Shown one piece after another: positions 19,797 to 64,000 of a stretch of DNA of 64,000 nt. Every line of letters begins with the position of its first letter. Position 1 is the stretch's first letter. The position numbers were made by a program, and so were the translations under genes. The notes beneath the pieces are model-generated. The model saw only the letters and a list, made by a program, of their open reading frames with translations. It was not told where the DNA came from and did not search any database. Origin of the DNA: an uncultured virus (IMG/VR IMGVR_UViG_3300044948_000587) (taxonomy: Duplodnaviria > Heunggongvirae > Uroviricota > Caudoviricetes). Where the stretch lies: IMG/VR virus record IMGVR_UViG_3300044948_000587; one strand, 5' to 3'.

Positions 19797-22700
19797 ATGG
19801 CCTTACAAAGAATAAATTGGACACAGATTGATAGTGAGAACGTCCCTTCGGGGTCGATTATTGATTTAGGTTCATCCTCCAACCCTCTTCATGCGGTATA
19901 TGCCGAAAATTTATACATTTCCGGTGTAAGTGTATCTTCATTAATTACTTATGGTACAAGTGGAACTGGTGGAAGTGGTTCTAACGGAACGTCAGGTTCA
20001 TCAGGTTCTAGTGGTGTGGGTTCTTCAGGAACGGCCGGTTCTTCAGGAACATCAGGACAAGCGGGTACTTCAGGAACTTCGGGAACTTCAGGTGAGGCGG
20101 GAACGTCAGGTTCTTCAGGTTCTAGTGGTGTTGGTTCTTCAGGTTCTTCGGGAACTTCAGGTGAGGCGGGAACGTCAGGTTCATCAGGTTCAAGTGGTGT
20201 TGGAACAAGTGGAACTTCAGGAAGTAGTGGTACATCACCATTAGGGTTTTCATCAGGAACTTCGGGAACTTCAGGTGAGGCGGGAACGTCAGGTTCTTCA
20301 GGTTCTTCGGGGTTAGCCGGAACTTCAGGCTCTTCGGGAACTTCAGGTGAGGCGGGAACGTCAGGTTCATCAGGATCTAGTGGTGTGGGTACTAGTGGAA
20401 CTTCGGGTTCAAGTGGTACAGGTTCATCATTATCAATTACACAATCAGGAGGGTCAACATATACTGCGGTTTCAGGAATAACATTTAGTGGTGCAACAAT
20501 CGTTGACCAAGGAAATGGTAGTATTACTGTTAATATTATTGGAGGTGGAACTTCAGGTACAGGTGGTACAGGTTCATCGGGAACTTCAGGAATTGATGGT
20601 TACGAAGGACATTTAGCAATTTGGAAATATAGTGGAAACACAAACACATCTCTTGACCCTGGTACAGGATATTTTAATTTAGATTCGGCAGCTTGGGGAA
20701 CATCAACAACAAGTATCACATTAGATAATTTTGCTTATTCACCAAATACAAATTTTTCAGCTTACTTAGACGGATTAACTATAGGTACCATTTTAAAATT
20801 GGTAAAAGTAGGTGACGCATCAACATTTAAGTTATTAAAAATTGATTTAGTATCACCACTTGATAGTGGATTTGAGAATTATACTGTTAGTCAATTATCA
20901 TCAGGTGGAACAGACCCGAATGATAATGACCAATTTTTAATTATACCATTAGGTATACCAGGTTTAACGGGTACTGCCGGTACTTCGGGTTCATCAGGTT
21001 CTAGTGGTTCATCGGGTTCTAGTGGTTCTTCAGGAACGGCTGGAACTTCAGGAACTGCCGGAACATCAGGTTCTGACGGTACTTCGGGAACTAGTGGTTC
21101 TTCAGGAACAGCTGGTTCTAGTGGTTCTTCAGGTTCATCAGGAAGTACAGGTACTTCGGGAACTAGTGGTTCTGACGGTACAAGTGGCACTTCAGGGGAT
21201 TCAATTTTTACATTAACGGGTTCTAATTGGTATACTAATGAAAACGTTATAATTGACGGTAAATTAACTGTAAATGAATTGATAGTATCATCTTCAATTA
21301 CAAATATGACCGTACAATATTCTAGTGGGTCAACTAAATTTGGAGACACATCGGATGATACTCATACATTTACAGGGTCTGTTAACATATCAGGTTCAAT
21401 AGTTGCAACTGGCACGTCATTAGTTTCAGGTTCATCACAAGTTATACTTTCAGGAGTTACAGGATTTTCAGATTTTAGTAGTTCAATTTCAACATCATTA
21501 GCGGGATTAACAACAACATTAAATGATAGTAATATTTGGCAACAAACCGGTAGTTACTATTCAGCTAATCAAAATATTCAAATTACAGGTAGTGCTGGTT
21601 CATTAATGAAATCACCTGATGGAGCGACTGACGAAAAATATGCATTGGCAATTTCACAATCAATTCATGCTAGTAATATTAATGTTGGTATACCAACTTC
21701 AAATGATTGGGGTTCGAATTTAAATGGTTCTTATTTTAATAATTTTAATAAAAACACAGACGTTTCTGAAATATTGAGATTTGTTGCGGGTTTATTATCA
21801 TCTTCAGCACCTGACGCAGCACCTAATACAAAAACATATAGTACTGCAACTAGAAATATTGTTAATACAACAGCGGGTAGTGTATCAACAACAGTACCCG
21901 GTAGTGTTCCACAAAGTTCTACTAACACAACAATTACTTATTTAAATGGTAAAGGATTTGCTAACACAGGACAACCATTATTTAGTGGAATTACTATCAA
22001 TACAAACGCATCTTACGGACATACATTTACAAGTGTGTCAGCTGGGTCTACCAACGTATCATCTTCAGTTGATGCACAATTATTTGGTTTAGGTCAATTA
22101 AGTAGTGGTACACCAACAAATTTTAGAGTATCGGGTTCATTTACATTTAAATTTAAAGATAGTAGTTTAAAAACGGACACCGCAACATCAAGTTCAAATC
22201 ATTTAATAACACAAACAGGTGCTGGTACAACAAGTGGTGTTACGTTAGCAAAAATAACAACAGCAAATCCTGCGGTTATTCCAGCAGCTTATCAAGATGG
22301 TAAATTTGTTTCAGTATTTTCACCTACAATATATAATGGTGGTTTAAGTGGAATAAGTGGTAGTGGTTATTATAACATAACATCATCTATTTCAATATCA
22401 AGTGGATCTGCAACAACATATACAACCCCTGTTACAAGTGATATTGAAGTATTCTATGCTCCTCTTTCTACTATTGCAACAAACATACCGGCACAAACAC
22501 CAACATTTAGTGGTGTAAGTGTTAATGCAATATCAGCCGTTTCTCGTTCATTGAGTGGAGCGCCTTTCTTAACAAGTGCAACATATAATATTTCAGGTTC
22601 TGTTACAGGATTGTTTAATCCATTATATTATGCAGGCACTGGTATTGCAACAATAGGTGTTAGTGGAACAGGTTTAGTTGCAACATCTGGAACAAATACA

Positions 22701-23669
22701 GTATCAACATTGGGTGGTACAATACAAACATCAAATGCGGTTTATGATTCAACAGGTGTAACTGTAAGAAGTACATCTACAGTTCCTTATGAAACAGATA
22801 TTGTTAAAGTAAATGGACTTTATACATTTACAGCACCGGCATCATCAAACGTAGTTTCGGCTTCGGGTTCGACAACACCAACAACATTTACATTAACAGT
22901 TAACGGTTTAAATAAAGCTGGTACAACAAGTACAAATACGTCAACAGTATCATATCATACTGCGGGAAATTTTAGTCAACTAAGTGCGAGTGGTAGTTTG
23001 GCCTATTATGGTAGAGTACAAGGAACAGATTCAGGAACAAACTCGGGAGCGTCAAACTTAGAACCATTTACTGGTGAAAGTAATAGAATACAATTAAGTG
23101 ATAATATATTATCATTCACAGGAACAGCTTGGGATACGGCATTTGGTTTATATAATTTAGGCGAAAAAGATTTACAAGTTAAACCTGGTTTCTTAGTTAA
23201 ACCTGGCGGAGCTTACAAGTATTGGTTAGAAAATCCAAGTGATACAAGTGATTACAAATATTATGTTAGAAAAGTTACAACCAACGCAGGTGTAAAGGGA
23301 ACAATGACTTTAAACATGGGATCTACCCTTGTGAATTGGAATTCAACAACAAGTAATTCTGTTTCATGTTTAATTTTATTTGAATCAACAAAGAGTGGTT
23401 TATATACACCACCAAGATTTTTTGACCCATCAAACGCTTTAACAAACTTAGGTACGATTACTGCAAATACTGACGGAACAAATCCATTTGGTTCAAGTAT
23501 ATATGTAAATCGTTGTAACACAAGTAGTGTTTCGTCAACAACATATACAATTCCATTAATTAGTGGTGACGGTATGATACTAAATGCAACATATACGAAT
23601 ATTTATGTAATTGTAAGATACAAAGGAGACCCAACACCAATAACTTCCATAACAACAACTTTTAGTTAA
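19797..23669 (+). CDS. Large Ser/Thr/Gly-rich virion structural (fibre-like) protein with Gly-X-Ser tracts
   Basis: 1290 aa; GSS/GTS tracts, STKFGDTSDDTHTFTGS module, long S/T-rich beta-like C-terminal region. Confidence 0.7.
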   Translation: MALQRINWTQIDSENVPSGSIIDLGSSSNPLHAVYAENLYISGVSVSSLITYGTSGTGGSGSNGTSGSSGSSGVGSSGTAGSSGTSGQAGTSGTSGTSGEAGTSGSSGSSGVGSSGSSGTSGEAGTSGSSGSSGVGTSGTSGSSGTSPLGFSSGTSGTSGEAGTSGSSGSSGLAGTSGSSGTSGEAGTSGSSGSSGVGTSGTSGSSGTGSSLSITQSGGSTYTAVSGITFSGATIVDQGNGSITVNIIGGGTSGTGGTGSSGTSGIDGYEGHLAIWKYSGNTNTSLDPGTGYFNLDSAAWGTSTTSITLDNFAYSPNTNFSAYLDGLTIGTILKLVKVGDASTFKLLKIDLVSPLDSGFENYTVSQLSSGGTDPNDNDQFLIIPLGIPGLTGTAGTSGSSGSSGSSGSSGSSGTAGTSGTAGTSGSDGTSGTSGSSGTAGSSGSSGSSGSTGTSGTSGSDGTSGTSGDSIFTLTGSNWYTNENVIIDGKLTVNELIVSSSITNMTVQYSSGSTKFGDTSDDTHTFTGSVNISGSIVATGTSLVSGSSQVILSGVTGFSDFSSSISTSLAGLTTTLNDSNIWQQTGSYYSANQNIQITGSAGSLMKSPDGATDEKYALAISQSIHASNINVGIPTSNDWGSNLNGSYFNNFNKNTDVSEILRFVAGLLSSSAPDAAPNTKTYSTATRNIVNTTAGSVSTTVPGSVPQSSTNTTITYLNGKGFANTGQPLFSGITINTNASYGHTFTSVSAGSTNVSSSVDAQLFGLGQLSSGTPTNFRVSGSFTFKFKDSSLKTDTATSSSNHLITQTGAGTTSGVTLAKITTANPAVIPAAYQDGKFVSVFSPTIYNGGLSGISGSGYYNITSSISISSGSATTYTTPVTSDIEVFYAPLSTIATNIPAQTPTFSGVSVNAISAVSRSLSGAPFLTSATYNISGSVTGLFNPLYYAGTGIATIGVSGTGLVATSGTNTVSTLGGTIQTSNAVYDSTGVTVRSTSTVPYETDIVKVNGLYTFTAPASSNVVSASGSTTPTTFTLTVNGLNKAGTTSTNTSTVSYHTAGNFSQLSASGSLAYYGRVQGTDSGTNSGASNLEPFTGESNRIQLSDNILSFTGTAWDTAFGLYNLGEKDLQVKPGFLVKPGGAYKYWLENPSDTSDYKYYVRKVTTNAGVKGTMTLNMGSTLVNWNSTTSNSVSCLILFESTKSGLYTPPRFFDPSNALTNLGTITANTDGTNPFGSSIYVNRCNTSSVSSTTYTIPLISGDGMILNATYTNIYVIVRYKGDPTPITSITTTFS
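19953..21198 (+). repeat. Coding Gly-(S/T)-S triplet tracts, including a 36-nt unit repeated 4 times
   Basis: ttcgggaacttcaggtgaggcgggaacgtcaggttc at 20078, 20147, 20261 and 20333; further tracts near 20545-20600 and 20960-21198. Confidence 0.9.
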
Positions 23670-23678: not shown

Positions 23679-25097
23679 ATGTCAATAGATAATAGTAAAA
23701 AATCCCCAAGGTTACTCCAAAGTAGAAGATATACACATGATACTTTTACTGATGCTCAAGAGGCTTTTACTTCAGTATTAGACATTAATGCAAATGAAAT
23801 TTATGTTGATCAAGATTTAATACCTGTAAGTAGTGTTCCTTTTGGAACAAGTGGAGATAATTTATCAATTTATAGTTCTGGTGGTCAAGATGTAATGAAA
23901 TATTACTATCGTTACAAGATGACTAAATCCAGTACGAATACTGAGGTTTGGTTTTTTACAACAGGAACGACAGCGGGAATTGATGCTCAGTTAATTGATT
24001 CTAACCAACAAAAAAACTTCATATCACCAAAATATTCAATCCCCTCACTATCTACTGCAAACGCGGAAGACAGTCCAGCGGGTTATGGTGTTAAAGTTTT
24101 TGTTTCAACGAACTCATCTTCACCATCTGCGGGTGATCAAATATCATCAACAAAATTTGTTTTTGATTATAAGACAGGAGTTTTACAATTTGTTTTAACT
24201 GCAGATAAACCAACGGATAGTCAATATGTTTATATATCTGCATATCAATATGTCGGTAGAACATTAAAAGATTCATTAAACAATTTAGGTAGTGCGGGAA
24301 TATTCCAACAAACAGGTTCATATTATTCAACTATTAATGATATCAAAATCACAGGGTCACTTGTTACTACAGGTGATTTAACTGTTGAAGGTACATTAAC
24401 TGCGAAGACGTTAATTATTTCGTCTTCAGTAACAAACATGGTTGTTCAATACGCTAGTGGATCAACAGCGTTTGGTGACACCGTAAATGACAATCATAAT
24501 TTCACAGGTTCGGTTAATATCACTGGTTCATTAACAATTAATGGACAATCATTTAGTGCTGCAACATCAGGCACAAGTGGTTCATCAGGAACGGCAGGTT
24601 CATCAGGAACAGCAGGTTCATCGGGTACTAGTGGTTCTGATGGTTCATCAGGTTCTAGTGGAAGTTCAGGTAGTAACGGTTCATCGGGTTCTAGCGGTAC
24701 TGCGGGTACATCTGGTTCAAGCGGTATTAGTGGGGTTAACGGAACAGATGGTTCTTCAGGTTCATCAGGAGATTCAATATTTGCACAAACGGGTTCTGCC
24801 CCTTATGATTTTTGGGCAACATCTAAAAATGTACAAATCACCGGTTCATTAATCACCTCAGGTTCTGTTATTATAAGGGGTGATTTAACGGTTGAAGGTA
24901 CCACAACATTAAATCAAAAAAATGATTTAAATAGAGAATCTTTAATAGTATCAGGAGCGTTAAATATTGTTGAGAGAAGAGTTAATACAACGTTAACATC
25001 GGCCTCATTATACTTTAATAATGAACTATCAATCATTAATAACACAATATCAAATCTAACATTCTCTGGAACATTTATTGACTCAGGAGAATTTTAA
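23679..25097 (+). CDS. Virion structural protein with Gly-X-Ser tract
   Basis: FDYKTGVLQF, YISAYQYVG; shares the STAFGDT..D.HNFTGS module; GSS tract at about 24567-24770. Confidence 0.7.
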   Translation: MSIDNSKKSPRLLQSRRYTHDTFTDAQEAFTSVLDINANEIYVDQDLIPVSSVPFGTSGDNLSIYSSGGQDVMKYYYRYKMTKSSTNTEVWFFTTGTTAGIDAQLIDSNQQKNFISPKYSIPSLSTANAEDSPAGYGVKVFVSTNSSSPSAGDQISSTKFVFDYKTGVLQFVLTADKPTDSQYVYISAYQYVGRTLKDSLNNLGSAGIFQQTGSYYSTINDIKITGSLVTTGDLTVEGTLTAKTLIISSSVTNMVVQYASGSTAFGDTVNDNHNFTGSVNITGSLTINGQSFSAATSGTSGSSGTAGSSGTAGSSGTSGSDGSSGSSGSSGSNGSSGSSGTAGTSGSSGISGVNGTDGSSGSSGDSIFAQTGSAPYDFWATSKNVQITGSLITSGSVIIRGDLTVEGTTTLNQKNDLNRESLIVSGALNIVERRVNTTLTSASLYFNNELSIINNTISNLTFSGTFIDSGEF

Positions 25098-25176: not shown

Positions 25177-28100
25177 ATGGCACAAATTATTAAACACAGG
25201 AGGGGTCAGTTATCCGGAATAAAAGCTTTAACCGCAAACAATGGTGAAATTATTGTTGCGTCGGGTTCAATTTCAGATTTACAAGGACCATTTATTTTCA
25301 TCGGTTCACCCGTATTACTGGATAATGGAACCGCTGGAGCCTTTAGTCCGGCCTCTAAAATATATACAGGAGCAGCTGCACCAACAATATTAAATGCGAG
25401 TTATGGTACTGCTTTAGATGGTACACCATTTTATGCTAGTGGTGACAAATCGTACTATATTTTAAATAATAGTGGTGCTGGTGGAAATACTAAATTAGAT
25501 TTAACAGGTAACATTGAAGGTAACACCATTAGTGGAGTTACTATTACCACATTAACAAGTACTAAGGGTACATTCAGTAGTCAAGTAAATGTTAGTGGGT
25601 CAATTAATGTTACAGGAAGTTTATTTATAAACGGTTCTGAATATACATCAAACTCTTCAGGTACTTCAGGTTCTTCAGGGTCTAGTGGCTCATCAGGAAC
25701 TGCTGGTACATCAGGTTCTTCAGGTTCTAGTGGTTCATCAGGAACATCAGGTTCTTCAGGGTCAGACGGTTCTTCAGGAACTTCAGGTTCTAGTGGTTCA
25801 GCTGGTACTTCAGGTTCTAGTGGTTCTTCAGGAACGTCAGGTTCTAGTGGTTCTTCAGGAACTGCAGGAACATCAGGTTCTTCAGGGTCAGATGGTTCAT
25901 CAGGTTCTTCAGGAACGTCAGGTTCTAGTGGTTCTTCAGGAACTGCAGGAACATCAGGTTCTTCAGGGTCAGATGGTTCATCAGGTTCATCAGGAACAAG
26001 TGGATCATCAGGAACATCGGGTTCTAGTGGTTCTTCAGGAACGGCTGGTACTTCAGGAACATCAGGTTCTTCAGGTTCAGATGGTTCATCAGGATCTTCA
26101 GGTTCATCAGGAACCGCTGGTACTTCAGGAACATCAGGTTCATCAGGTTCTTCAGGGTCAGATGGTTCATCAGGTTCTAGTGGTTCTGCGGGTACGTCAG
26201 GTTCATCAGGGTCATCAGGAACTTCAGGTTCATCAGGTTCATCAGGGTCAGACGGTTCTTCAGGAACATCGGGATCATCAGGTTCATCAGGAACTTCAGG
26301 TTCAAGTGGTTCATCAGGAACTTCAGGTTCATCGGGTTCTTCAGGTTCTAATGGTACAGATGGTACTTCAGGAGATAGTTTATTCGCATTAACTGGTTCA
26401 ATATGGTCTACCCAAAATCCAGTAAGAATAGTAGGAGCTTTAACCGCTTCAATGGTATCATCTTCATTCATAGGCGATGGTGCGGGTTTATATAATATTC
26501 CAGCAAGTGGTGTTACAGGTTTAGAATTAAATAAAATTGTAAACGGTGCGGTAAGTGCTTCAGTTTTATCTGACGGAACATTCAGAGTAAACGGTGATAC
26601 ATTTATTAATGGTACCATCACGGCAAGACAATTAAATATTGATTATGTAACTTCATCAATTTTATACACATCAGGTTCAACTAAGTTTGGTGATACATTT
26701 GATGATTTACATGAATTTACAGGAAGTGTAAACATAACAGGTTCTTTATTCTTAAATGGTGTAACAGTTGGAACGGGTAAACTAAATACAACTGATTTTA
26801 ACTCATATACATCTTCAGTAAATTCACAATTTGCAGGAACATCATCATTTGCGATTTCTTCATCATATGCTGTTTACGCGGAGAATGCAGTTATTGTTTC
26901 AGGTCAAACTAAAACATTAACAGTAACTACTCCATCAACAACATGGTCATTTACACACAATTTGGGTTATAAATTCCCAGCGATTAATGTTTTTGATGGT
27001 AATGATAATGTAATAGTTCCTTCAGGAATTAAAGTAAAAAATAGTAATCTATTAGAGGTATATTTTAATAGTGTTGAAACGGGTACTGTAATTGCCACTA
27101 TCGGTGGTAATGGTTCTTCTGGAACTTCAGGTTCAGGTGGTTCTTCTGGAACTTCAGGTTCTAGTGGTTCATCAGGAACATCAGGTTCTTCAGGGTCAGA
27201 CGGTTCATCAGGAACTTCAGGTTCTAGTGGTTCTTCAGGAACTTCAGGTTCTAGCGGTTCTTCAGGAACATCAGGTTCCTCAGGTTCATCAGGAACTTCA
27301 GGTTCTAGTGGTTCATCAGGTTCTAATGGTACAGATGGTTCTTCAGGTTCTAGTGGTTCTTCAGGAACGGCTGGTACATCAGGAACTTCAGGTTCATCAG
27401 GTTCAGATGGTACTTCAGGAACATCAGGTTCTTCAGGAACTTCAGGTTCTAGTGGTTCATCAGGAACATCAGGTTCAAGTGGTACTGCGGGTACTTCAGG
27501 TTCTTCAGGGTCAGATGGTTCTAGCGGTTCTTCAGGAACAAGTGGTTCATCAGGTTCTTCAGGAACAAGTGGTTCATCAGGTTCTTCAGGAACTTCAGGC
27601 TCAAGTGGTTCTTCAGGAACTTCAGGTTCAGATGGTACTTCAGGAACATCAGGTACTTCAGGTTCGTCAGGTTCTTCAGGAACTGCGGGAACTTCAGGTT
27701 CTAGTGGTTCATCAGGAACTGCAGGTACATCAGGTTCTTCGGGTTCAGATGGTTCTTCAGGTACTTCAGGTTCTAGTGGTTCATCAGGAACATCAGGTTC
27801 ATCAGGAACAGCGGGTACTTCAGGTTCTTCAGGTTCTTCAGGAACGAGTGGTTCTTCAGGTTCTTCAGGGTCTAGCGGTTCATCAGGTTCTTCAGGAGAT
27901 AGTATATTCGCTTTAACAGGTTCAGTTTGGGAGACTAATTTAAATGTTAAGTTCAACCAATCAGTAACCTCATCTATATTCACAGGTTCATTTAAAGGTG
28001 ATGGTGCAGGACTTTATAACATACCAGCAAGTGGTGTTACAGGATTACAATTAGACAAAATTGCAAGTGGAGCGGTAACAGCTTCAGTAACAGCGGCAGG

Positions 28101-28785
28101 TTTACAAGTAAATGCTAACACATCTATCACAGGTTCTTTAAGTGTAAGTCAAGATGTTAGTTTCTTATCTAATTTGTTTGTATCAGGTAACCTACAAGTT
28201 TTGGGTTCATCAACAAATGTTAATATTGAATCACATACAGTTGAAATCGGTGATAATATCATCCAAGTAAACGCTTACTCACCATTTAACAGATATGCGG
28301 GTTTATCAGCATACGATTCAGGTTCAGTAGGTGGTTCAGGTTCATTGTTATGGGATTCAACAAATGATTATTGGATACAAGTTGGTTCTAACGGACAATC
28401 AAGTAAAATGGTTGGAGTTACAGGAGGAGCATATGGTAGTGAAGCAAGTTTAACAACAAACGCAATACCAAAAGCAACTACAGGAAACACAATCGGTGAT
28501 AGTTTGTTAACTGATAATGGTACAACATTAGCATACAACACTAACAAGTTTACCGTAGCATCTTCTGACGGAGCAACGTTAATCGCGGGTAATGTTACTG
28601 TAAGTGCAGCGGGTGGTAGTGACTCTAATAGTAAAACATCAGCAGTTACATTTAGAAACTCATCAAATGTTTTAGGTTATGTATCAACAACAGTTGGTAG
28701 TGACGTAACGGATGGTTTCTTAGGATATAAAACATCAAATGGTGGTTTAGTATTCTCGAATGTAATTGACGGAGGAACATTCTAA
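25177..28785 (+). CDS. Tail fibre-like protein with two very long Gly-X-Ser tracts
   Basis: MAQIIKHRRG N-terminus (Mtd_N-like docking motif), ends IDGGTF, internal duplication GDGAGLYNIPASGVTGL. Confidence 0.75.
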   Translation: MAQIIKHRRGQLSGIKALTANNGEIIVASGSISDLQGPFIFIGSPVLLDNGTAGAFSPASKIYTGAAAPTILNASYGTALDGTPFYASGDKSYYILNNSGAGGNTKLDLTGNIEGNTISGVTITTLTSTKGTFSSQVNVSGSINVTGSLFINGSEYTSNSSGTSGSSGSSGSSGTAGTSGSSGSSGSSGTSGSSGSDGSSGTSGSSGSAGTSGSSGSSGTSGSSGSSGTAGTSGSSGSDGSSGSSGTSGSSGSSGTAGTSGSSGSDGSSGSSGTSGSSGTSGSSGSSGTAGTSGTSGSSGSDGSSGSSGSSGTAGTSGTSGSSGSSGSDGSSGSSGSAGTSGSSGSSGTSGSSGSSGSDGSSGTSGSSGSSGTSGSSGSSGTSGSSGSSGSNGTDGTSGDSLFALTGSIWSTQNPVRIVGALTASMVSSSFIGDGAGLYNIPASGVTGLELNKIVNGAVSASVLSDGTFRVNGDTFINGTITARQLNIDYVTSSILYTSGSTKFGDTFDDLHEFTGSVNITGSLFLNGVTVGTGKLNTTDFNSYTSSVNSQFAGTSSFAISSSYAVYAENAVIVSGQTKTLTVTTPSTTWSFTHNLGYKFPAINVFDGNDNVIVPSGIKVKNSNLLEVYFNSVETGTVIATIGGNGSSGTSGSGGSSGTSGSSGSSGTSGSSGSDGSSGTSGSSGSSGTSGSSGSSGTSGSSGSSGTSGSSGSSGSNGTDGSSGSSGSSGTAGTSGTSGSSGSDGTSGTSGSSGTSGSSGSSGTSGSSGTAGTSGSSGSDGSSGSSGTSGSSGSSGTSGSSGSSGTSGSSGSSGTSGSDGTSGTSGTSGSSGSSGTAGTSGSSGSSGTAGTSGSSGSDGSSGTSGSSGSSGTSGSSGTAGTSGSSGSSGTSGSSGSSGSSGSSGSSGDSIFALTGSVWETNLNVKFNQSVTSSIFTGSFKGDGAGLYNIPASGVTGLQLDKIASGAVTASVTAAGLQVNANTSITGSLSVSQDVSFLSNLFVSGNLQVLGSSTNVNIESHTVEIGDNIIQVNAYSPFNRYAGLSAYDSGSVGGSGSLLWDSTNDYWIQVGSNGQSSKMVGVTGGAYGSEASLTTNAIPKATTGNTIGDSLLTDNGTTLAYNTNKFTVASSDGATLIAGNVTVSAAGGSDSNSKTSAVTFRNSSNVLGYVSTTVGSDVTDGFLGYKTSNGGLVFSNVIDGGTF
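25655..26373 (+). repeat. Coding (Gly-Ser/Thr-Ser)n tract of about 240 codons
   Basis: 9-nt period ggttcttca/ggaacatca/ggttctagt. Confidence 0.95.
27108..27897 (+). repeat. Coding (Gly-Ser/Thr-Ser)n tract of about 260 codons
   Basis: Same 9-nt periodic units. Confidence 0.95.
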
Positions 28786-32082: not shown

Positions 32083-32552
32083 TGGCGACATTAATAGGTA
32101 CAACTGCAACAACATACAATGCAACATCTACGTCAAATGCAAGTAGTACAATTTGTTCTAATACAATGGCTTTACAACAATGGGGTGGGAATGTTTCCGT
32201 AATATCACCATATTATAGTGCAACACCATATACGGATGTACTTTGTAATAATAATAATTGGCAATGGGTAACAGGGTATGTTAGTTTTTTAGGATATCAA
32301 AGTTACAATAGTACTCAAAATGTTTGGTTTGCACTATCACAATATGGTTTACAAATAACATCGGGGCCAACTAATGACCAATTAATAACATTTTCATATT
32401 ATGAAGACCCAACAAGTGCTTCTAAAAGTTGGTTAAGATTTACAAATCAATATAACGCATCGTGGGCAAATGCCACCTGTTTAGTTAATATAACATTATT
32501 CGCTCCAAATGCTAATGCAATAACATCACCTATTTTAACAAGATACGTTTAA
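32082..32552 (+). CDS. Small fibre-associated protein, paralog 1 of 3
   Basis: Shares LSQYGL, WLRFTN and S.ILTR with the next two ORFs. Confidence 0.7.
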   Translation: MATLIGTTATTYNATSTSNASSTICSNTMALQQWGGNVSVISPYYSATPYTDVLCNNNNWQWVTGYVSFLGYQSYNSTQNVWFALSQYGLQITSGPTNDQLITFSYYEDPTSASKSWLRFTNQYNASWANATCLVNITLFAPNANAITSPILTRYV

Positions 32553-33459: not shown

Positions 33460-33468
33460 TTATATAAT

Positions 33469-33735
33469 ATGATACATGAATTAGACAACGGAGACCCATT
33501 ATTAAGTCCAATCGACGGAACACCACTTACTGAAGATCAAAGATATGGATTTTATATTGGTTTATCTGAACATTACGCAACACAATATCAAAGAGATAGA
33601 CAACAAATATACCCATCATTAGGTAATCAATTAGATATGTTGTGGCATGAATTAAATGTGAGCGGTAGTTTAACAAGTAATGGTGAATGGTTTAATAAAA
33701 TAAAAGAGGTTAAAGAAAACAATCCAAAACCTTAA
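33469..33735 (+). CDS. Small phage tail-fibre-associated (assembly chaperone-like) protein
   Basis: YQRDRQQIYPSLGNQLDMLWH...IKEVKENNPKP pattern, recalled from proteins beside phage fibre genes. Confidence 0.6.
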   Translation: MIHELDNGDPLLSPIDGTPLTEDQRYGFYIGLSEHYATQYQRDRQQIYPSLGNQLDMLWHELNVSGSLTSNGEWFNKIKEVKENNPKP

Positions 33736-33738
33736 TAA

Positions 33739-51618: not shown

Positions 51619-51624
51619 GTTTTA

Positions 51625-52596: not shown

Positions 52597-52619
52597 TGTT
52601 TTATTTTTAATTATGTTAT

Positions 52620-55525: not shown

Positions 55526-56142
55526 TTTCCTGTTCCGTAGTGCGGCCACTCTTTTTTATAATCGTACCAAATAACATCATTAGGTGCTTCAGTTTTTATT
55601 TTCCAAGTTTCTATTGTTGGAGTATTGGTTGAAACTCCATTATCCTCTACCACAAATTTTATTGGTAAATCAAAATTCTTGGCATATTTGTAATTTTCCA
55701 TAAATCCACCAGTTTCGTATGCCATATCACCAATAAAACACCATACCATTTCATCATTACCTTCCATTTTATTTTTCATAGCAACACCAACTGCAATTGG
55801 TATGATGGCACCAACAATAGCGGACGCATAAAACTTCTCTTCTTTATTTACTAACGTAATAGACCTACCTTCTAATATTTCGTTTTCAATCCATAGAGGG
55901 TCTATACCTTTTAGTAATGCGTGATAATGTGATCTCCAAGTAGAGAAAACCCAATCAGATTTTTTTATTCGTCTAAAGATTTCAATTAATTCTTTTTCAT
56001 TACCACCACTCAAATGAATCGGTCCTCTTACTCTACCCGATTCCCAATGGTCTGCCATCTTTCTTTCAAATTGAATTAATCCTGCACTATCCCATAATGA
56101 TTCTCTCACTATTGGTAAATGGTCATTTAAATTTTTTATCAT
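55510..56142 (-). CDS. TPP-dependent dehydrogenase E1 alpha-like subunit (short)
   Basis: HLSGGNE, STWRSHYHAL, GDMA...EDN TPP-binding motif. Confidence 0.85.
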   Translation of the reverse strand: MIKNLNDHLPIVRESLWDSAGLIQFERKMADHWESGRVRGPIHLSGGNEKELIEIFRRIKKSDWVFSTWRSHYHALLKGIDPLWIENEILEGRSITLVNKEEKFYASAIVGAIIPIAVGVAMKNKMEGNDEMVWCFIGDMAYETGGFMENYKYAKNFDLPIKFVVEDNGVSTNTPTIETWKIKTEAPNDVIWYDYKKEWPHYGTGKWVIF

Positions 56143-56684
56143 CTATCTCTTTTTTGTAATATTGGATTATTTGTTGGCCATTCCATTTGATATTCGGGGT
56201 CATTCCATTTAACAACTCCTTGTTCGTCAGCATCGACATAACCATCTTTATAAAATAGGTTATAGTGAAACATACAATCGGTTAATGCGTAATGTCCATT
56301 TGCAAACCCTGGTGGAACCAACACTTGATTTCTTTCTTTTTCAGTTATCATGAAAGATTCCCAATCCCCAAATGTTGATGAATATTTCCTCATATCTAAT
56401 ACTATTAAATATATATCACCAACTGCGGCTTGTACTAACTTCCAAGTTTTAGTATCATAGTGTAAACCTCTTAATACCCCTTTATACGATTTTGAAAATC
56501 TACCGTGAATACTAATTTCACTTTTTTCATAATGTATATGCCTCATTACAGGATGTTCTTCTGAATGAAAGGTTGTGAATATTTCACCTCTATATTCTCT
56601 ATAAATTGAAGGTGTAAACGTTGGAACTTGATATCCAAATACTTTTGATGGAGTTTCTATAAACTCATCCCATTTATTGCTCAT
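56139..56684 (-). CDS. rmlC: dTDP-4-dehydrorhamnose 3,5-epimerase family
   Basis: SYKGVLRGLH, KLV...G.I..V.LDMR..S.TFG, VPPGFANGH, WNDP. Confidence 0.88.
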   Translation of the reverse strand: MSNKWDEFIETPSKVFGYQVPTFTPSIYREYRGEIFTTFHSEEHPVMRHIHYEKSEISIHGRFSKSYKGVLRGLHYDTKTWKLVQAAVGDIYLIVLDMRKYSSTFGDWESFMITEKERNQVLVPPGFANGHYALTDCMFHYNLFYKDGYVDADEQGVVKWNDPEYQMEWPTNNPILQKRDR

Positions 56685-56685
56685 A

Positions 56686-57657
56686 TTATGTGTTGTTTGC
56701 GTATCCTAAAGGAAAACCATTTCTAAATTCTGCACCCATTTTAGGTACAATCATTTGGTATGCCATTATTAATTCATTAATTCCCATATCAATATCCCAC
56801 TTAGGAGACCAACCAGTCAATTCAACTTTAGTGTTTGATACAATGTAATCTCTTTTATCGGGGTCTTCGTAATAGTCATTATATGACACTGCAAAGTTTT
56901 TAACATGAGATTGAATTTTCTCAAGTAATTCCTGTTTTGATAAATTAGCGTTACTTAATCCAACATTGAAAACTTCACCCTTATATTTGTCATAATTTTC
57001 TAACATAAACAAAAACACATTTGCCACATCTTGAATATGTATGAAATTTCTTTTAAAACTCTTTTCAAAAACAACAATGTATTTGTCAGTGATTGCCTTA
57101 TAAGTAAAATCATTAACTAATAAGTCGGTTCTCATTCTTGGAGACACACCAAAAACAGTTGCCAATCTAAAAACAATAGCGTCAGTTGAAGTCCTTAAAA
57201 AATTCTCAGCTTCACATTTTGTTTGACCATAAACTGAAATTGGTGTAAGTGGAGATTCCTCGGTACATTCTAATTGACCAGTACTTAAACCATAACCACT
57301 ATTTGTATTTGGATATAAAATCTTTTTACCCTTTCCATTTGTGAATTTAACAATATTAACTATTTGTTGTAAGTTAATTTCTTTTGCTAATTTAGGGTCT
57401 TGTGCACAAGCAGGAAACCCAACTATTGCGGCTAAAGGTATGATTACATCAACCTCATTACATAACCTTTCCAATTCCGTTTCATTACGAACATCACCAT
57501 AGATAAATTTAAAATTTGGATTTGATGTGTATTGTAATAGTGAGGTTTGATTAAATAATAATTTATCCAAGACTATTACGTTGTGACCGTAATCTAACAT
57601 TTTACCAGTAATAACAGAACCGAGATAACCGGCACCACCTGTGATTAGTATTTTCAT
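56686..57657 (-). CDS. NAD-dependent sugar epimerase/dehydratase
   Basis: ITGGAGYLGS, LAAIVGFPAC, YGQTK, RLATVFGVSPRMRTDL. Confidence 0.88.
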   Translation of the reverse strand: MKILITGGAGYLGSVITGKMLDYGHNVIVLDKLLFNQTSLLQYTSNPNFKFIYGDVRNETELERLCNEVDVIIPLAAIVGFPACAQDPKLAKEINLQQIVNIVKFTNGKGKKILYPNTNSGYGLSTGQLECTEESPLTPISVYGQTKCEAENFLRTSTDAIVFRLATVFGVSPRMRTDLLVNDFTYKAITDKYIVVFEKSFKRNFIHIQDVANVFLFMLENYDKYKGEVFNVGLSNANLSKQELLEKIQSHVKNFAVSYNDYYEDPDKRDYIVSNTKVELTGWSPKWDIDMGINELIMAYQMIVPKMGAEFRNGFPLGYANNT

Positions 57658-57732: not shown

Positions 57733-58977
57733 ATGGATAAAATTATATGCAGTTTAGAAGAGTGGGATAGTGTTATTGACTATCATAGACCTAATGGTGC
57801 ATCTAAATCTTGGTATTTAAAAGAATTAGGGGAATTAACAAGACCCCTAATGTGGGGTAATTGGGACTTATTTAATGAAAACGGTGAATTTTTTACGCCA
57901 GATTTTTTTAAAGGTAAAATAGCACCGAACATATATAATAAAAAAATAGAATACCAAACAATAGATAACATAGAGAACGACAAACACATATATGTTATTA
58001 ATATTTATAATGTTTCATTTTTTTATGAAAATTTAGATATTGGATTTAGTTGCATATCTGAAAAATATCTTGATGATGTTAGAAATGGAAAATCCAAGAT
58101 AGTTTTAATGTTGTTGTATGAAGGAACGTCAGGTTCTAAAGATAACTATGACTTGGAAATTATAAATAAGTGGAGAAAGGATTCTAACTTACCAACAAAT
58201 TCAATTTATTTTTGTTGTGGTAATTTATTGTGTAATCAAATCACTATAGAGAAAGGATTAGGGATTACGTCGATACCAATGTTGGATTTTGAAACATGGA
58301 ACACATATCAAGGTGATATTGTTGACTATACACCTGTAAATCAAAAAAACTTATTTTTAAATTATAATAGAAACCCTAGACCTCATAGGGTTGAATTTTT
58401 AAGTAATCTTTTAAATGTAGATATTTTTAATAGGGGTTTAATTAGTATAGGAAAGGTTATTGATGGTAACAATGAATTTTTAATCAACAACACCCCTATT
58501 ACTATTGATGATACCTATGATTTAAAATTCAATATGGCATGTAGTATAACTAAAAGTGATTATGAAAAAACATTCATATCGGTCGTATCTGAAACATTAG
58601 TTGATGAAGGTACTTTGTTTATAACTGAGAAAACTTGGAAGCCGATAATGGTTGGTCATCCATTTATGATTTTGGGTAATCAAGGTACATTAAAGTATTT
58701 AAAATCAATAGGTTATAAAACTTTTAGTCCTTGGATTAATGAAGAATATGATGATATTTCAGATTCTGCAACAAGGTTAATTAAAATTGTTGAGGAATTG
58801 GAAAAATTAAGTAAAAAGAGTGTTGAGGAATTATTAGAAATTAGGAAAGAAATGGGAGATATATGTAAACATAATCAGGAAAATTTTAATAACCGATTTA
58901 AAATGAAGTATGGTGAGAATAATATAAACGGAGATATATCAAACATGTTTGATATTATATGGAATGAAATTAGTTAA
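57733..58977 (+). CDS. Putative glycosyltransferase-like protein (TEK family, paralog 3 of 4)
   Basis: NYNRNPRPHR, VVSET, FITEKTWKPI..HPF. Confidence 0.5.
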   Translation: MDKIICSLEEWDSVIDYHRPNGASKSWYLKELGELTRPLMWGNWDLFNENGEFFTPDFFKGKIAPNIYNKKIEYQTIDNIENDKHIYVINIYNVSFFYENLDIGFSCISEKYLDDVRNGKSKIVLMLLYEGTSGSKDNYDLEIINKWRKDSNLPTNSIYFCCGNLLCNQITIEKGLGITSIPMLDFETWNTYQGDIVDYTPVNQKNLFLNYNRNPRPHRVEFLSNLLNVDIFNRGLISIGKVIDGNNEFLINNTPITIDDTYDLKFNMACSITKSDYEKTFISVVSETLVDEGTLFITEKTWKPIMVGHPFMILGNQGTLKYLKSIGYKTFSPWINEEYDDISDSATRLIKIVEELEKLSKKSVEELLEIRKEMGDICKHNQENFNNRFKMKYGENNINGDISNMFDIIWNEIS

Positions 58978-58979
58978 CT

Positions 58980-60236
58980 ATGGAAAATAACACAAAAAAA
59001 CTAAATTTAGTTTACGATAAGTGGGATGACAACACAAAAAAACCAACACCAAACGGTAGTTGGGATGCCTCTAACTTAATAAACCATTTCATAAATGATT
59101 CATTTAAATACAATAAATTTGAGTTGAAAAATTGTAAATTAGAAGATGTTTATGAAAATAAAAATGAAAAATACTATTATTTTTTTACACACGGTAGAGA
59201 GGAACTATCAAAAATTTTTGACAGAGAATTACCATTTGAAATTGATATATTAAACTGTTTAAAAGACTGCCCAAATTTTTATTTTGTTTACATTACAGAA
59301 CATGAACCAGATAATGAAAGTGGGTTCAGAATGTTACGAGAATTTATATCTTATCAAAAATTAAACGAAACACAATTTTACGTCATAAATAATAATGATA
59401 AACTTAATGAATATAAAATAAAATATAATAGTAATATAAATGTGCATTCATTGCAATTCATAGCTCACTCCTCAACAAAAGTTTTAGATTATGTTGGCGG
59501 GTGTAGTTTTATTCCTAACAAAACAGGTAAATTTGCTATGTTATTTAATAAATCCCCGAGATCTCAAAGGGCGTGTTTGTTATGTCTATTAATGAAAAAT
59601 GGATTACTTAACCAAATGAATTGGTCTTTTGTACCAACATATAATGTTAACATAGATGAAAGGTATTTTAAGGATTTATTAAGTGAAAATGATATAAATG
59701 ACATTAAATCTGAGATTGATGATTTTTCTAAATTAGAAATTAAAATCAGTGATTTTGAGGAAGAAAAAAATTGGTTTAACAAACACGAACAACCAAATAT
59801 GGCTGGGTTACCAAAAATAATGACAATACCAGAGTACCCAAAAAATTATGAAAATTCATATGTTAACATTGTTACCGAATCAATGTATTTTAAAAAGTAT
59901 AATGTAATCCACATAACTGAAAAATCATTTAGACCATTTTATTATTATCAAATCCCATTAATATTGGCGTCCGAAGGACATGTTAAAAAAATAAAAGAGA
60001 GATATGGGTTAGATTTTTTTGACGACATCATTGACCACAGTTATGATGGTATTAAAAATGATAGAGATAGATTATATGCTTTTGTAAAAGAAATTGAAAG
60101 AATACATCAAAATAAAGACCAAATCATTGAATTTTATAAAAAAAATCAAGAAAGATTTGAAGATAATAAAAGAAAAATCATTAAAAATTTAGATTTAGTT
60201 AATGATGAATATGAATTTTTTAAAAACTTAATTTAA
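58980..60236 (+). CDS. Putative glycosyltransferase-like protein (TEK family, paralog 4 of 4)
   Basis: Close paralog of 54263-55525: LNLVYDKW, NIVTES, HITEKSFRPF, FDDIIDHSYD. Confidence 0.5.
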   Translation: MENNTKKLNLVYDKWDDNTKKPTPNGSWDASNLINHFINDSFKYNKFELKNCKLEDVYENKNEKYYYFFTHGREELSKIFDRELPFEIDILNCLKDCPNFYFVYITEHEPDNESGFRMLREFISYQKLNETQFYVINNNDKLNEYKIKYNSNINVHSLQFIAHSSTKVLDYVGGCSFIPNKTGKFAMLFNKSPRSQRACLLCLLMKNGLLNQMNWSFVPTYNVNIDERYFKDLLSENDINDIKSEIDDFSKLEIKISDFEEEKNWFNKHEQPNMAGLPKIMTIPEYPKNYENSYVNIVTESMYFKKYNVIHITEKSFRPFYYYQIPLILASEGHVKKIKERYGLDFFDDIIDHSYDGIKNDRDRLYAFVKEIERIHQNKDQIIEFYKKNQERFEDNKRKIIKNLDLVNDEYEFFKNLI

Positions 60237-60946
60237 TGGGAACATTATGGACTTTTGGTTGCAGTTTTACTGCGGAGTGGTATCCAGTGGGATATGAAAA
60301 CCCATCGACATACGATGAATATAAAAAATTTAAAGGAGGTACGTTACCTGATGTGTGGCCAATTATTTTAGGTAAAAAATTAAATTATGACCTTAGAAAC
60401 TGTGCCTTTGGTGGGTCATCAAATTATAATATATTAAAACAGTTTATTAATGCAATTGATAACATAAATGAGGGGGACATATTAATATTTGGATGGACAA
60501 GTTTACTTAGATTTTGTGCTGTTAGTGAATCGGAACATAAAATTATTGAAATGTTACCAAGATATTCATATGATGTAAATGTTGGTTATTCAAAAACAAC
60601 TGTTGATGAAATATTGGTTAATAGGTCACATCCATTATGGGCGGAAGAGGTTAATAATTGGATTAAGTTTATTAATGATTATTGTTGTTTAAAAAATGTT
60701 GAGATATTTCATTGGAATAGTGATATTTTGTTGTTTGACGAGAACTCCAAATTTATTGATGATAAAAAATACATATTACCACCAAAAGGAAATCAGAATG
60801 AAACAATGATTAATTATTTTACCAATAATATAGGAACAATACAAGATGAAACTGATGGTAAAATTAATGATTTACATTTAGGTGAGTTTGGTCACATTAA
60901 ACAAGCTGAATATTTTTATAATCACATAAAAAAACACATAAAATGA
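60236..60946 (+). CDS. SGNH/GDSL-like protein
   Basis: FGCSFT, GGSSN, DLHLGEFGH. Confidence 0.65.
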   Translation: MGTLWTFGCSFTAEWYPVGYENPSTYDEYKKFKGGTLPDVWPIILGKKLNYDLRNCAFGGSSNYNILKQFINAIDNINEGDILIFGWTSLLRFCAVSESEHKIIEMLPRYSYDVNVGYSKTTVDEILVNRSHPLWAEEVNNWIKFINDYCCLKNVEIFHWNSDILLFDENSKFIDDKKYILPPKGNQNETMINYFTNNIGTIQDETDGKINDLHLGEFGHIKQAEYFYNHIKKHIK

Positions 60947-61566
60947 GGTTAATAACATTTGGAGATAGTTGGACTGCGGGTCATGGTATTGAAACTGATA
61001 TAAAATATAAAGAGGAACCATTTCCAGATGCATTCACACAAAAATTAAGGGATATGAATTCGTGGCCAAGATGGGTTGCACAAAAACTTGATTGTCCATA
61101 TGTTAATCTTGGTGTTTGTGGTTATGGAAACGAATACATTTTAAATGAGATTGATGGAATTAAAAATTTTGGATTATTATCTAAAGACGACATCATCATT
61201 GTTATGTTCTCATATCCATATAGATATAAATCTAAAGATAGTCACAATGTTGTTGAGATATTCTTACTAATGGAAGAAATTTTAAAAGATTATAAACATT
61301 TTTATTTTAATTCATTTTACCCATCGTTTAGGGAGGAGGATGTCGACACCAAAAAACTACCATCATATTTCATTAATCCCGATGGGTGTGTTTCAGATAT
61401 TTTAAGGGAATATGAAATTAAAAATGATGAATCAGTTTGGGAGTATGGTAATAGAAGTGTATGGAATGACGAGGAAAATTTTTACGAGGGAGATTATCAC
61501 CCAAATTTAAATGGTTATAAAATAATTGGAGATTACATATATGAACAAATTAATAAAATTATATAA
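60943..61566 (+). CDS. SGNH/GDSL-like protein
   Basis: FGDSWTAGHG, NLGVCGYGN, DYHPNLNGY. Confidence 0.72.
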   Translation: MRLITFGDSWTAGHGIETDIKYKEEPFPDAFTQKLRDMNSWPRWVAQKLDCPYVNLGVCGYGNEYILNEIDGIKNFGLLSKDDIIIVMFSYPYRYKSKDSHNVVEIFLLMEEILKDYKHFYFNSFYPSFREEDVDTKKLPSYFINPDGCVSDILREYEIKNDESVWEYGNRSVWNDEENFYEGDYHPNLNGYKIIGDYIYEQINKII

Positions 61567-62287
61567 CGAAGATAATATTAAAATATGGGTGGATTATTTA
61601 ACTCATGTTGATATTAAATTTAATGGGTATAAACCAAAAATTCAAAACAACTCAAAACACTATGCTGTTATAATTGAACCTAGACAACATCTTAATTTAG
61701 CGTTGGTGATGAAATCAACAATGTTTCATTTAAATGAGAATGAATCACCAATTAAGTGGGGATTACAAATTTTTCATGGTACGAATAACGAAGACTATAT
61801 AAAAAACATAACTAAAGATTGGGGTGGAGTTGAATATTTTAATATGGGGGTTAGAAACTTATCAAATATTGAACATAGTGAGTATATGGAAACATCGGAT
61901 TTTTGGAAAAATGTAAAAGGGGATAAGGCTTTAATTTTTCAAACAGATTCTTTACTATTAAGAAGCGGTATTGATGAATTCTTATCTTATGATTACATAG
62001 GAGCTCCGTGGAGAAAACCAAAAGAAAATCAGTGGGTTGGTAATGGAGGATTATCATTAAGAACCGTTAGTAAAATGATTGAAATTTGTGAAAATAACCC
62101 AGTTACCGAACAAATTTGGGAAGATATTTATTTTATGAAACATATGAAAGGAATGGGTGTTGCTGATGTTGAAACCGCGTCAAAATTTAGTATGGAAGAC
62201 GTATTTTCAAAAAACCCCTTAGGTGTTCATAACCCAATAAGACACATTGAACCAAAACAATTAAAAAAGGTTCTTTTTAAAAAATAG
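61541..62287 (+). CDS. DUF5672-like putative glycosyltransferase
   Basis: LIFQTDS, YDYIGAPW, VGNGGLSLR, EDIYF, FSME, LGVH. Confidence 0.75.
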   Translation: MNKLIKLYNEDNIKIWVDYLTHVDIKFNGYKPKIQNNSKHYAVIIEPRQHLNLALVMKSTMFHLNENESPIKWGLQIFHGTNNEDYIKNITKDWGGVEYFNMGVRNLSNIEHSEYMETSDFWKNVKGDKALIFQTDSLLLRSGIDEFLSYDYIGAPWRKPKENQWVGNGGLSLRTVSKMIEICENNPVTEQIWEDIYFMKHMKGMGVADVETASKFSMEDVFSKNPLGVHNPIRHIEPKQLKKVLFKK

Positions 62288-62290
62288 ACA

Positions 62291-63955
62291 ATGTATATAA
62301 TCGGAATATCGGCATTTTATCATGACTCCTCTGTATGTTTATTCAGAGATAACCAATTAATATTTGCATGTGAAGAAGAAAAGTTCACAGGGATAAAACA
62401 CGATAGTTCATTCCCTGATAGGGCGTTAGATTATATATATATAAAATATAAAATAAACGAGAAAAATTTACAGGCGGTTTGTTATTACGAAGACCCAAAA
62501 TTAAAATACCAAAGAGTAGTTGATAACATTAGACCACAACTATTTAAAAACCCCTTTTATTCTATTAAATCTTTTTTAAAGATTAAAAGAAACATGAAAA
62601 CTTTAGATAAAAGACTTAAAGAGTTATCACCTAATGTTTTTTATTCCACACATCATGAGGCTCACCAATATTATTCATATTACACATCACCATTTGAAAA
62701 GGCAACTTGTCTATCAATAGATGGTGTTGGTGAGATTGATACGTTATCGGTTGGTTTTGGTGACTACCAAGGTATTGAATATGGTAGTATGGCGAAATAC
62801 CCACATTCGTTAGGTTTATTTTATTCTGCAATGACCTCATTTTTAGGGTTTAGACCAAATGAAGGTGAATATAAAATGATGGGATTGGCCCCATATGGAA
62901 ATTCGGAAATTTATATTGATAAGGTAAGAAAATTAATTACATATAAAAATAGTAAATTGGAATGTAATATGGATGTTTTTTGTTGGAATACATCTGACAA
63001 AACCATGTTCAATGATAATCTTTCTACATTACTTGAGATTGACCAACGTATACCTGACGATAGTTTAGAACCAGTACACAAAGATTTAGCGGCATCAGTA
63101 CAAAAAGTTTACGAAGAAATATTATTCAAAATTTTAAAATCAATTTCAATTATAAGTGAAAGTCAAAATTTATGTTTAAGTGGAGGTTGTGCATATAATG
63201 GAACGGCAAATGGTAAGATTGTTAACGATTCGGCATTCAGTCATTTATGGATACCACCGGCACCATCTGATGCGGGTTCTGCAATAGGTGCTGTCATTCA
63301 TTATTTAGTTAAGGAAAAGAAAGTTAGAAATAAAGTGACCAAAAATCCATTCTTAGGACCAATGTATTTTCTTGATGAGATTAAAGACGCCATTAAGAAA
63401 ACTAAAAATTATAAGTTTGCGTCAGATACAAGTCTTATAGATTATGTCGCGAAAAAATTAAAAGAGGGTAAAGTTGTGGGTTGGTTTCATGGTCACATTG
63501 AATTCGGTTCAAGAGCATTGGGTAATCGATCAATCTTGGCAGACCCAACTATTGAGGGTATGAAAGACAGGATTAATAAAGTCATTAAAAAACGAGAAGG
63601 GTTTAGACCATTTGCGCCGATGGTGACTAAAGAAAGACAAGATGAATTTTTTGAAATGACTGACGATATCCCATATATGAATCAAGTGGTTAAGGTTAAA
63701 CCAGAATATAGAGACATATTAAAAGCGGTAACTCACGTAGACGGTTCAGCAAGAGTACAAACGGTATATAAAAACACCATGATATATGATTTATTAAAAT
63801 CATTTGAAAAGGTATCAGGGTACCCAATATTATTAAACACGTCGTTTAATGTTAAAGATAAAACAATGGTATTGACACCCAAAGATGCGGTAGATACTTT
63901 TTACGATACTGACATGGATTTGTTGGTTATAGGTAATTATATAATATATAAATAA
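62291..63955 (+). CDS. O-carbamoyltransferase (NodU/CmcH/TobZ family)
   Basis: YHDSS, EEEKF, HHEAH, DGVGE, EYKMMGLAPYG, EFGSRALGNRSIL, RPFAP, HVDGSARVQTV, LLNTSFN. Confidence 0.95.
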   Translation: MYIIGISAFYHDSSVCLFRDNQLIFACEEEKFTGIKHDSSFPDRALDYIYIKYKINEKNLQAVCYYEDPKLKYQRVVDNIRPQLFKNPFYSIKSFLKIKRNMKTLDKRLKELSPNVFYSTHHEAHQYYSYYTSPFEKATCLSIDGVGEIDTLSVGFGDYQGIEYGSMAKYPHSLGLFYSAMTSFLGFRPNEGEYKMMGLAPYGNSEIYIDKVRKLITYKNSKLECNMDVFCWNTSDKTMFNDNLSTLLEIDQRIPDDSLEPVHKDLAASVQKVYEEILFKILKSISIISESQNLCLSGGCAYNGTANGKIVNDSAFSHLWIPPAPSDAGSAIGAVIHYLVKEKKVRNKVTKNPFLGPMYFLDEIKDAIKKTKNYKFASDTSLIDYVAKKLKEGKVVGWFHGHIEFGSRALGNRSILADPTIEGMKDRINKVIKKREGFRPFAPMVTKERQDEFFEMTDDIPYMNQVVKVKPEYRDILKAVTHVDGSARVQTVYKNTMIYDLLKSFEKVSGYPILLNTSFNVKDKTMVLTPKDAVDTFYDTDMDLLVIGNYIIYK

Positions 63956-64000
63956 ATGTCTAAAATTCTAATCATAGGGGATAGTTTTGTTGGTAAAGGT
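63956..64000 (+). CDS. SGNH-like protein, N-terminus only (cut by window edge)
   Basis: MSKILIIGDSFVGKG. Confidence 0.55.
   Translation, partial: MSKILIIGDSFVGKG

Follow-up and report, generated by a model that had tools for sequence, protein, structure and literature searches.

Collagen-like fibre genes

The DNA analysed here, referred to throughout as the window, is a stretch of 64,000 nucleotides from an uncultured virus (IMG/VR IMGVR_UViG_3300044948_000587), and its source is a T4-like jumbo phage. It contains four collagen-like fibre genes (F1–F4) followed, after a lectin cassette, by an island of glycan-building genes that spans 27 kb (36998–63955). The original prediction, made from the sequence alone, described this arrangement correctly and proposed that the phage glycosylates its own fibres with the island enzymes. 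Comparison with related viruses demonstrates that the fibre repeats and the island are separable modules. It is about an even call that they represent two glycosylation modules, one of the TibC type acting on the fibres and the other, the island, making a separate glycan that is most likely placed on the virion.

All four fibre genes lie on the plus strand, and their products pass the Pfam Collagen model with tail fibres as their best PHROG matches. F1 (19797–23669), a fibre or structural protein, contains 74 Gly-X-Y triplets. F2 (23679–25097) is a fibre segment of 472 amino acids with 23 triplets, F3 (25177–28785) contains 169, which form two uninterrupted tracts (80 and 89), and F4 (28936–32082), a distal fibre with a C-terminal S74 chaperone, contains 62. 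Counted in runs of at least four, this gives 328 triplets, with 557 Ser/Thr residues within the tracts and one proline in all. In runs of at least five the four proteins hold 74, 23, 169 and 59 triplets, far above the maxima of 10, 5, 17 and 8 obtained from 1000 shuffles of each protein. The Ser/Thr-rich Gly-X-Ser tracts first noticed in four structural genes are therefore real, although F2 is too short for the description ‘giant’ that had been applied to all of them. The fibres show no enrichment of N-X-S/T or D-(S/T)-X sequons in any of the four. Triplet-free fibre homologues in relatives still consist of 21–32% Ser/Thr.

A TATTTAT motif is found closely upstream of structural genes at window positions 19770 (before F1), 25150, 28836 and 5927. 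It also precedes the genes for terminase, portal, sheath and tube in G004, a 336 kb relative syntenic with the window, and judged by this placement it is likely a late promoter. Between F4 and the island lies a variable plus-strand cassette (32082–36983) that encodes three small unknown proteins, an 88-amino-acid phage protein, two LamG proteins and one further unknown protein.

Organization of the island

The first part of the island is read from the plus strand. It opens with u237 (36998–37711), which contains a DxD-like motif, followed by a Methyltransf_24 protein (37698–38453) and a GT2_4-like glycosyltransferase (38501–39352), both assigned by Pfam, and then by three GT7-LamG proteins, a (39375–40781), b (41536–42783) and c (42780–44192). 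Pfam and motif checks show that the GT7 proteins possess GT7N and GT7C domains, a DxD motif, the fold and a WG..EDDD-type acceptor motif, the last of which is altered in GT7a. GT7c consists of a β-1,4-GalT7-like N-terminal part joined to a LamG/pentraxin domain; its model has a pLDDT (predicted local distance difference test) of 92.3, and Foldseek aligns it with B4GalT7 (E 8e-14) and with pentraxin/LamG structures. Two twitch radical SAM (S-adenosylmethionine) enzymes come next (44189–45574 and 46141–47586; 335 and 305 bits against NF033640, cut-off 170), separated by a free LamG-like domain (45549–46136; PF02210, E 4.6e-4). When the LamG domains of the enzymes were compared with those of the virion as a possible shared docking domain, the profile scores were weak. 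The segment closes with copy 1 of a GT-B-fold family, here called X (47589–48869), an SGNH-like protein (48871–49848) and u145 (49849–50286).

A minus-strand operon (50243–57657) follows. Along the coordinates it encodes the β chain of a split thiamine pyrophosphate (TPP) enzyme (182 residues, 50243–50791), an SGNH protein (50788–51618), a GDP-fucose-synthase-like (GFS-like) reductase (51625–52596), a reductase fused to a 2-oxoglutarate (2OG) oxygenase domain (52620–54266), X copy 2 (54263–55549), the TPP α chain (210 residues, 55510–56142), a GDP-4-keto-heptose-epimerase-like protein (56139–56684) and a 6VO6-like C4 oxidase (56686–57657). The island then returns to the plus strand with X copies 3 and 4 (57733–60236, the latter starting at 58980), two SGNH-like proteins (60236–61566), a DUF5672 protein assigned by Pfam (61526–62287) and a NodU/CmcH-type O-carbamoyltransferase (62291–63955). 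The island thus holds three nucleoside-diphosphate-sugar epimerase/reductases (one of them the 2OG fusion), an RmlC-like protein and the split TPP pair, and the list of enzymes given originally is matched, with the DUF5672 protein as a putative transferase. Four of the five SGNH proteins claimed are complete, and the fifth is cut by the window end at 63957.

Family searches of the 39 window proteins found no flippase, Wzy/Wzz or ABC exporter, as had been stated. The enzymes look soluble, as described; radical SAM 2 and TPP α are the only two with a 19-residue hydropathy peak above 1.8. The four X paralogues had been overlooked. They align with each other and match no Pfam family, and the single X protein modelled adopts a GT-B fold (pLDDT 80.2) with GT-B proteins as its matches. 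An Atlas match (0.80) makes kinship with GT10 fucosyltransferases a tentative lead; X does not match PF00852, and GT10 chains reach Z 9.6–10.7 against 12.4 for the top match. Family searches assigned neither u237 nor u145 to a family. The latter is strongly conserved, at 74–93% identity among relatives; in one clade it is found together with the TPP genes, and on this association it could possibly be a third subunit of the TPP enzyme.

The island is independent of the fibre repeats

Relatives were compared through GT7c, which has 253 relatives in IMG/VR, 80 of which were fetched; G-numbers denote the related viral records or loci. Counts of collagen and TibC cover 45 records (from 50 loci submitted), including G037, whose collagen match is weak, and G026, typed without inspection of its composition. 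Island gene content was compared across 24 extended related regions, the row for G002 being incomplete as the downstream part of its island was left out.

The island core, consisting of the methyltransferase, the GT2 protein, two GT7-LamG proteins and a twitch radical SAM enzyme, is present in 24 of 24 regions, nine of which have no triplets. In G018 and G019 (35% and 48% complete) nearly the whole island occupies the same locus and adjoins fibre homologues with zero triplets, both fibre slots having been read. A collagen match is present in 20 of the 45 records and in three of the seven that are at least 90% complete, leaving four without; G043 (93% complete) and G034, which has terminal repeats, are among the records that lack it. 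The converse is seen in the cultured Microcystis phage Mel-JY01, which has 202 triplets and no match to the island. The expected co-occurrence of repeat fibres with the GT7-LamG island therefore fails in both directions, and occurrence of the island apart from the fibres is a result that the original prediction had itself named as refuting it.

Outside the core the gene content varies. The C4 oxidase is found in 25 of the 45 records, and the copy number of X goes with the full sugar set: of 12 regions that have the set, 11 carry at least two copies of X, and all eight regions that lack it carry one copy or none. In two island variants (G014 and G020) the heptose operon is replaced by arrays of six to seven twitch radical SAM paralogues. 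Ralstonia phage RsoM2USA (MG752970.1, 15001–19747) has a 48%-identical twitch radical SAM gene adjoining a carbamoyltransferase gene, with no other island gene in 31 kb.

A TibC/Aah-type transferase accompanies Ser/Thr-rich collagen

Homologues of TibC/Aah are found in the neighbourhood of the triplet fibres of relatives. G004 has two, 8 and 14 kb past the carbamoyltransferase gene and beside a further triplet fibre, and the closest downstream relative, which shares 89% nucleotide identity with window positions 59308–64000, has a TibC gene approximately 14.5 kb past the carbamoyltransferase gene, again adjoining a further triplet fibre. Relatives’ homologues score 264, 282 and, in four of four records, 288–290 bits against TIGR04414 (cut-off 200), and keep the catalytic D110, K230 and W305 together with the four iron-finger cysteines. 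TibC was found in 17 of the 45 records. Sixteen have both TibC and Ser/Thr collagen, one has collagen only, one TibC only and 27 neither. The collagen-only record (G005) ends inside its own TibC gene, which adjusts these numbers to 17, 0, 1 and 27. In G022, the record with TibC only, the sequence stops 5 kb upstream of the GT7. The collagen of G017 and G021 is of the proline type and occurs without TibC. On a GT7c tree of 29 records (the 16 that have both traits, and 13 whose length was judged sufficient for calling absence) each trait changes five times, and three of three independent pairs are concordant; the same pair test on all 45 records gives three concordant and one tied. A separate set of 21 TibC loci, most of which are near-duplicates, has a triplet fibre within 10 kb in 16 cases. 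TibC matches in GenBank amount to four records, and in Mel-JY01 the triplets are accompanied by a GT4–methyltransferase–TibC fusion. LR756501 contains 72 collagen matches.

The 202 triplets of Mel-JY01, of the form Gly-Thr/Ser-Ser, lie in an open plus-strand frame of 1016 residues (PP395634.1, 2–3049) where GenBank gives two minus-strand hypothetical genes, which is probably a mis-annotation.

A second feature overlooked originally is a minus-strand gene pair at 3538–5134. It encodes an HldD-like ADP-glyceromanno-heptose 6-epimerase (3538–4368; 184.5 bits against TIGR02197, below the cut-off of 274.6) and a heptose-7-phosphate kinase like the kinase domain of HldE/RfaE (4370–5134; 127.5 bits against TIGR02198, below cut-off). 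The HldE-like kinase is present in seven of the 45 records, six of which have both collagen and TibC. Two other candidate priming enzymes were rejected: GT41 (OGT) occurs in none of the 45 records, and GtfA (TIGR02918) gave weak partial matches in five, none near its cut-off.

These observations suggest a first module in which the proline-free Gly-Ser/Thr-Ser fibres would be O-glycosylated on serine, in the cytoplasm, by a TibC/Aah-type transferase. Its gene would lie about 14 kb past the last gene of the window, and the donor would probably be an NDP-heptose, to whose supply the HldE/HldD-like pair would contribute. Several points weigh against this. The TibC gene of the window's own phage is inferred from its relatives. 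The adenine contact R286, which gives ADP specificity, is lost, being Ile in both G004 homologues, and Mel-JY01 has no HldD/HldE match. Triplets are missing from the 10 kb around five of the 21 TibC loci, and LR756504 has TibC with no collagen match. The trait correlation is not significant (p 0.25), since three independent pairs cannot reach significance. Finally, the known acceptors of TibC are autotransporter passenger domains, not triplet tracts.

Predicted sugar chemistry of the island

The oxidase encoded at 56686 matches 6VO6, which we take to be Cj1427, with E 3e-102 (next match 3e-23). The best matches of the epimerase at 56139 are GDP-4-keto-heptose epimerases, and the reductase at 51625 is GDP-fucose-synthase-like, a family-level match only. 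In outline, the capsular heptose pathway of Campylobacter jejuni follows an oxidise–epimerise–reduce scheme with Cj1427, Cj1430 and Cj1428 (PMC10680097), and pairs of pyruvate-dehydrogenase-E1-like (PDH-E1-like) chains put two-carbon branches on 4-keto sugars (PMC4425429). The island is therefore predicted from its gene content to make a C4-branched heptose-type sugar. The same five sugar genes are found on a contig of a bacterial metagenome-assembled genome together with GT2s and with genes resembling GmhA, HddA, HddC and a flippase, none of which reaches its cut-off. GmhA (SIS_2) is absent from 23 of 23 viral records and a GHMP kinase is present in two of the 23. G034, from a clade without triplets that has the heptose operon, encodes an HddA-like heptose-7-phosphate kinase (9693–10742; 335 bits, below cut-off). 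As the phages mostly have no heptose supply genes, the substrate would come from the host or be a different one. Both sugars are uncertain in view of the lost R286, the missing HldD/HldE match in Mel-JY01, the absence of GmhA and the rarity of the GHMP kinase.

In the second module the island would act as a lineage-wide glycan builder that does not require triplets. The fixed core (GT2, GT7-LamG, methyltransferase and twitch radical SAM) would build and edit an oligosaccharide. The variable part would oxidise a GDP-heptose at C4, epimerise it, probably add a two-carbon branch through the TPP pair, and reduce the product. Transfer by the GT-B X proteins and then acylation or carbamoylation may complete the glycan.

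The acceptor of the island glycan

On balance, the acceptor is slightly more probably the virion than anything else, and most likely a virion protein, one of the Ser/Thr-rich fibres or LamG proteins, whether or not it has triplets. This is favoured because the island lies beside Ser/Thr-rich structural genes in two clades, its enzyme clusters are virus-restricted and it contains no membrane partners. In each of the two clades compared, the island is preceded by a large structural gene rich in Ser/Thr. The earlier idea of a cytoplasmic capacity aimed at the virion thus remains plausible, and what loses support is the dedication of the island to triplet fibres. Set against a virion acceptor, only position ties the island to it, no priming enzyme for the island glycan was identified, the sugar genes resemble a bacterial surface-polysaccharide cluster, and the island operon heads have no late-type motif.

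The strongest alternative keeps the TibC module and has the island feed new sugars into the carrier and export systems of the host. It would thereby remodel the O-antigen, the capsule or a glycoprotein glycan on the host surface, to exclude superinfecting phages or to protect against grazers. This is a weighty competitor, though a less probable one than the virion. Independence from the triplets agrees with it, as do the match of the sugar genes to a flippase-bearing bacterial cluster and the non-late motif at the operon heads. In G004 the island head and the TibC-cassette head both have this motif, so promoter type does not separate the two; the motifs were read by eye, with the late type at 66 of 204 heads and the head of the X operon ambiguous. 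Sugar islands of aquatic T4-like phages, namely the glycan clusters of P-SSM2 and the pelagimyophages, have been interpreted as host-surface modifiers since 2005, with no test given in the passages covered (PMC1079782, PMC2984593, PMC7029224). The GT7-LamG clusters among the top Atlas matches listed and the three X clusters listed are, however, 100% viral, and the island has no membrane or periplasmic partner. A missing flippase is compatible with a host-surface target, as soluble transferases could use host carrier and export machinery. The core is also fixed across two distant phage clades, which would be easier to explain by a phage substrate than by host glycans, since these vary.

It is unlikely that the island is a dedicated system for the triplet fibres or that, in this phage, it extends fibres already primed with heptose. 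It lies directly beside triplet fibres in the window, G004, G005 and G006, DUF5672 occurs only in triplet-bearing regions (five of 24), and GT7c is closest to B4GalT7, an enzyme that extends a Ser-linked sugar. Against this stand G018 and G019, which have the whole island but no triplets, and Mel-JY01, which has triplets but no island. Elongation of fibre glycans may nevertheless be a side activity of the island.

A soluble or lipid-linked glycoconjugate serving as decoy, counter-defence or signal rather than coat is very improbable. Secondary-metabolite clusters often include radical SAM, carbamoyl, TPP-branching and 2OG enzymes (see PMC4425429), but the island lacks an aglycone pathway, is rich in transferases and lectin-like domains, and keeps a fixed position by structural genes. 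Phage DNA, hypermodified by glycosylation or carbamoylation of a hydroxymethylpyrimidine, is an unlikely acceptor that we give hardly any weight: phage carbamoyltransferases of these Pfam families act on 5-hydroxymethylcytosine and T4 β-glucosyltransferase is among the GT-B matches of X, but that carbamoylation is paired with a thymidylate-synthase-family gene bearing Asp177 (PMC8670742), a partner not found in G004 and represented in other records by four genes that bear Asn (2OG/TET-type routes to such a base lie outside this comparison), and the window encodes two D12 adenine methylases.

Genomic setting

T4-type Gp23 is present in four of four near-complete relatives tested. The closest capsid proteins to that of G004 (40–44%) are those of an uncultured 484 kb phage, Mel-JY01 and Flavobacterium immuto phages. 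Membership of the window phage in the moraphages was considered and not established. The non-late promoter motif of these phages looks Bacteroidota-like. One 36 kb viral record encodes proteins identical to those of the window across its first 23.5 kb. Upstream of the fibres (417–19714) the window encodes the two D12 methylases, an SbcC-like nuclease subunit, ClpP, sigma-70, NusG, an amidase, an AAA ATPase and thioredoxin, and relatives keep these genes in the same order. G004, annotated with 184 proteins (12 at piece borders and those shorter than 150 residues left out), has a second glycan cluster (10561–16943) with a PF11397 GlcNAc transferase, GT25, GT11, a methyltransferase and a UDP-galactopyranose mutase, and further GT2/GT4 clusters elsewhere.

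Comparison with known systems

In TibC–TibA and Aah–AIDA-I of E. coli (the BAHT family, TIGR04414; PDB 4RAP) the transferase is likewise cytoplasmic and its gene lies beside Ser-rich repeat proteins (PMC4358343). The relatives’ homologues pass the family cut-off with the catalytic and iron-finger residues noted above. They differ in being phage-encoded, often fused to other domains, without R286 and with Ser or Gly at position 300, and for the window phage the presumed acceptor is a Gly-X-Y fibre and the gene lies outside the window (PMC4358343). As in C. jejuni, a C4 oxidase, a 3/5-epimerase and a GFS-like reductase share one operon; the phage adds the TPP chains, a 2OG domain and a second reductase, its close relatives have no GmhA or HddA, and the island has no capsule export genes (PMC10680097). 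AviB1/AviB2 and the YerE branching enzymes, compared by description only, similarly include PDH-E1-like α and β chains beside 4-keto-sugar enzymes, but the phage chains are much shorter and the predicted substrate is a heptose (PMC4425429).

P-SSM2, with its ‘LPS’ (lipopolysaccharide) cluster, and the pelagimyophages, with host-recognition clusters beside tail fibres, are also T4-like aquatic phages with large sugar clusters, which use GT8 where the island has GT7-LamG and X (PMC1079782, PMC2984593, PMC7029224). The fibril clusters of the Megavirinae combine virus-encoded nucleotide-sugar enzymes, transferases and modifiers at a comparable size (6–33 genes); their hosts are eukaryotic, their glycans were demonstrated chemically, and no shared transferase family is demonstrated (PMC10117803). 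Mycobacteriophages also glycosylate their own virions, the acceptors being capsid and tail tube (Freeman 2023, cited in PMC12619734).

GT7c and X match no phage in GenBank. In the literature covered (titles and the starts of abstracts, with most subscription papers and supplements outside the search) no phage TibC, GT7-LamG or such island is described. New here are the finding that each module occurs without the other, the GT-B family X, the branched-heptose prediction and the cultured test phage.

Implications

Virion glycosylation has been shown for few phages, and in mycobacteriophages it reportedly requires far fewer enzymes. Separating the modules names a candidate fibre enzyme and gives a cultured model phage, Mel-JY01, and with the island come enzyme families so far uncharacterised, as well as the prediction of a branched heptose. 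A bolder reading, which we regard as doubtful, is a self-made coat of two tiers, in which dense TibC-type heptosylation would replace proline as the stabiliser of the collagen. Virion proteins would in addition carry an oligosaccharide that is built by lectin-fused GT7 and by GT-B enzymes specific to viruses, includes a nine-carbon sugar branched at C4 and is edited by radical SAM chemistry. If true, this would represent a glycosylation system of giant-virus scale in a bacteriophage.

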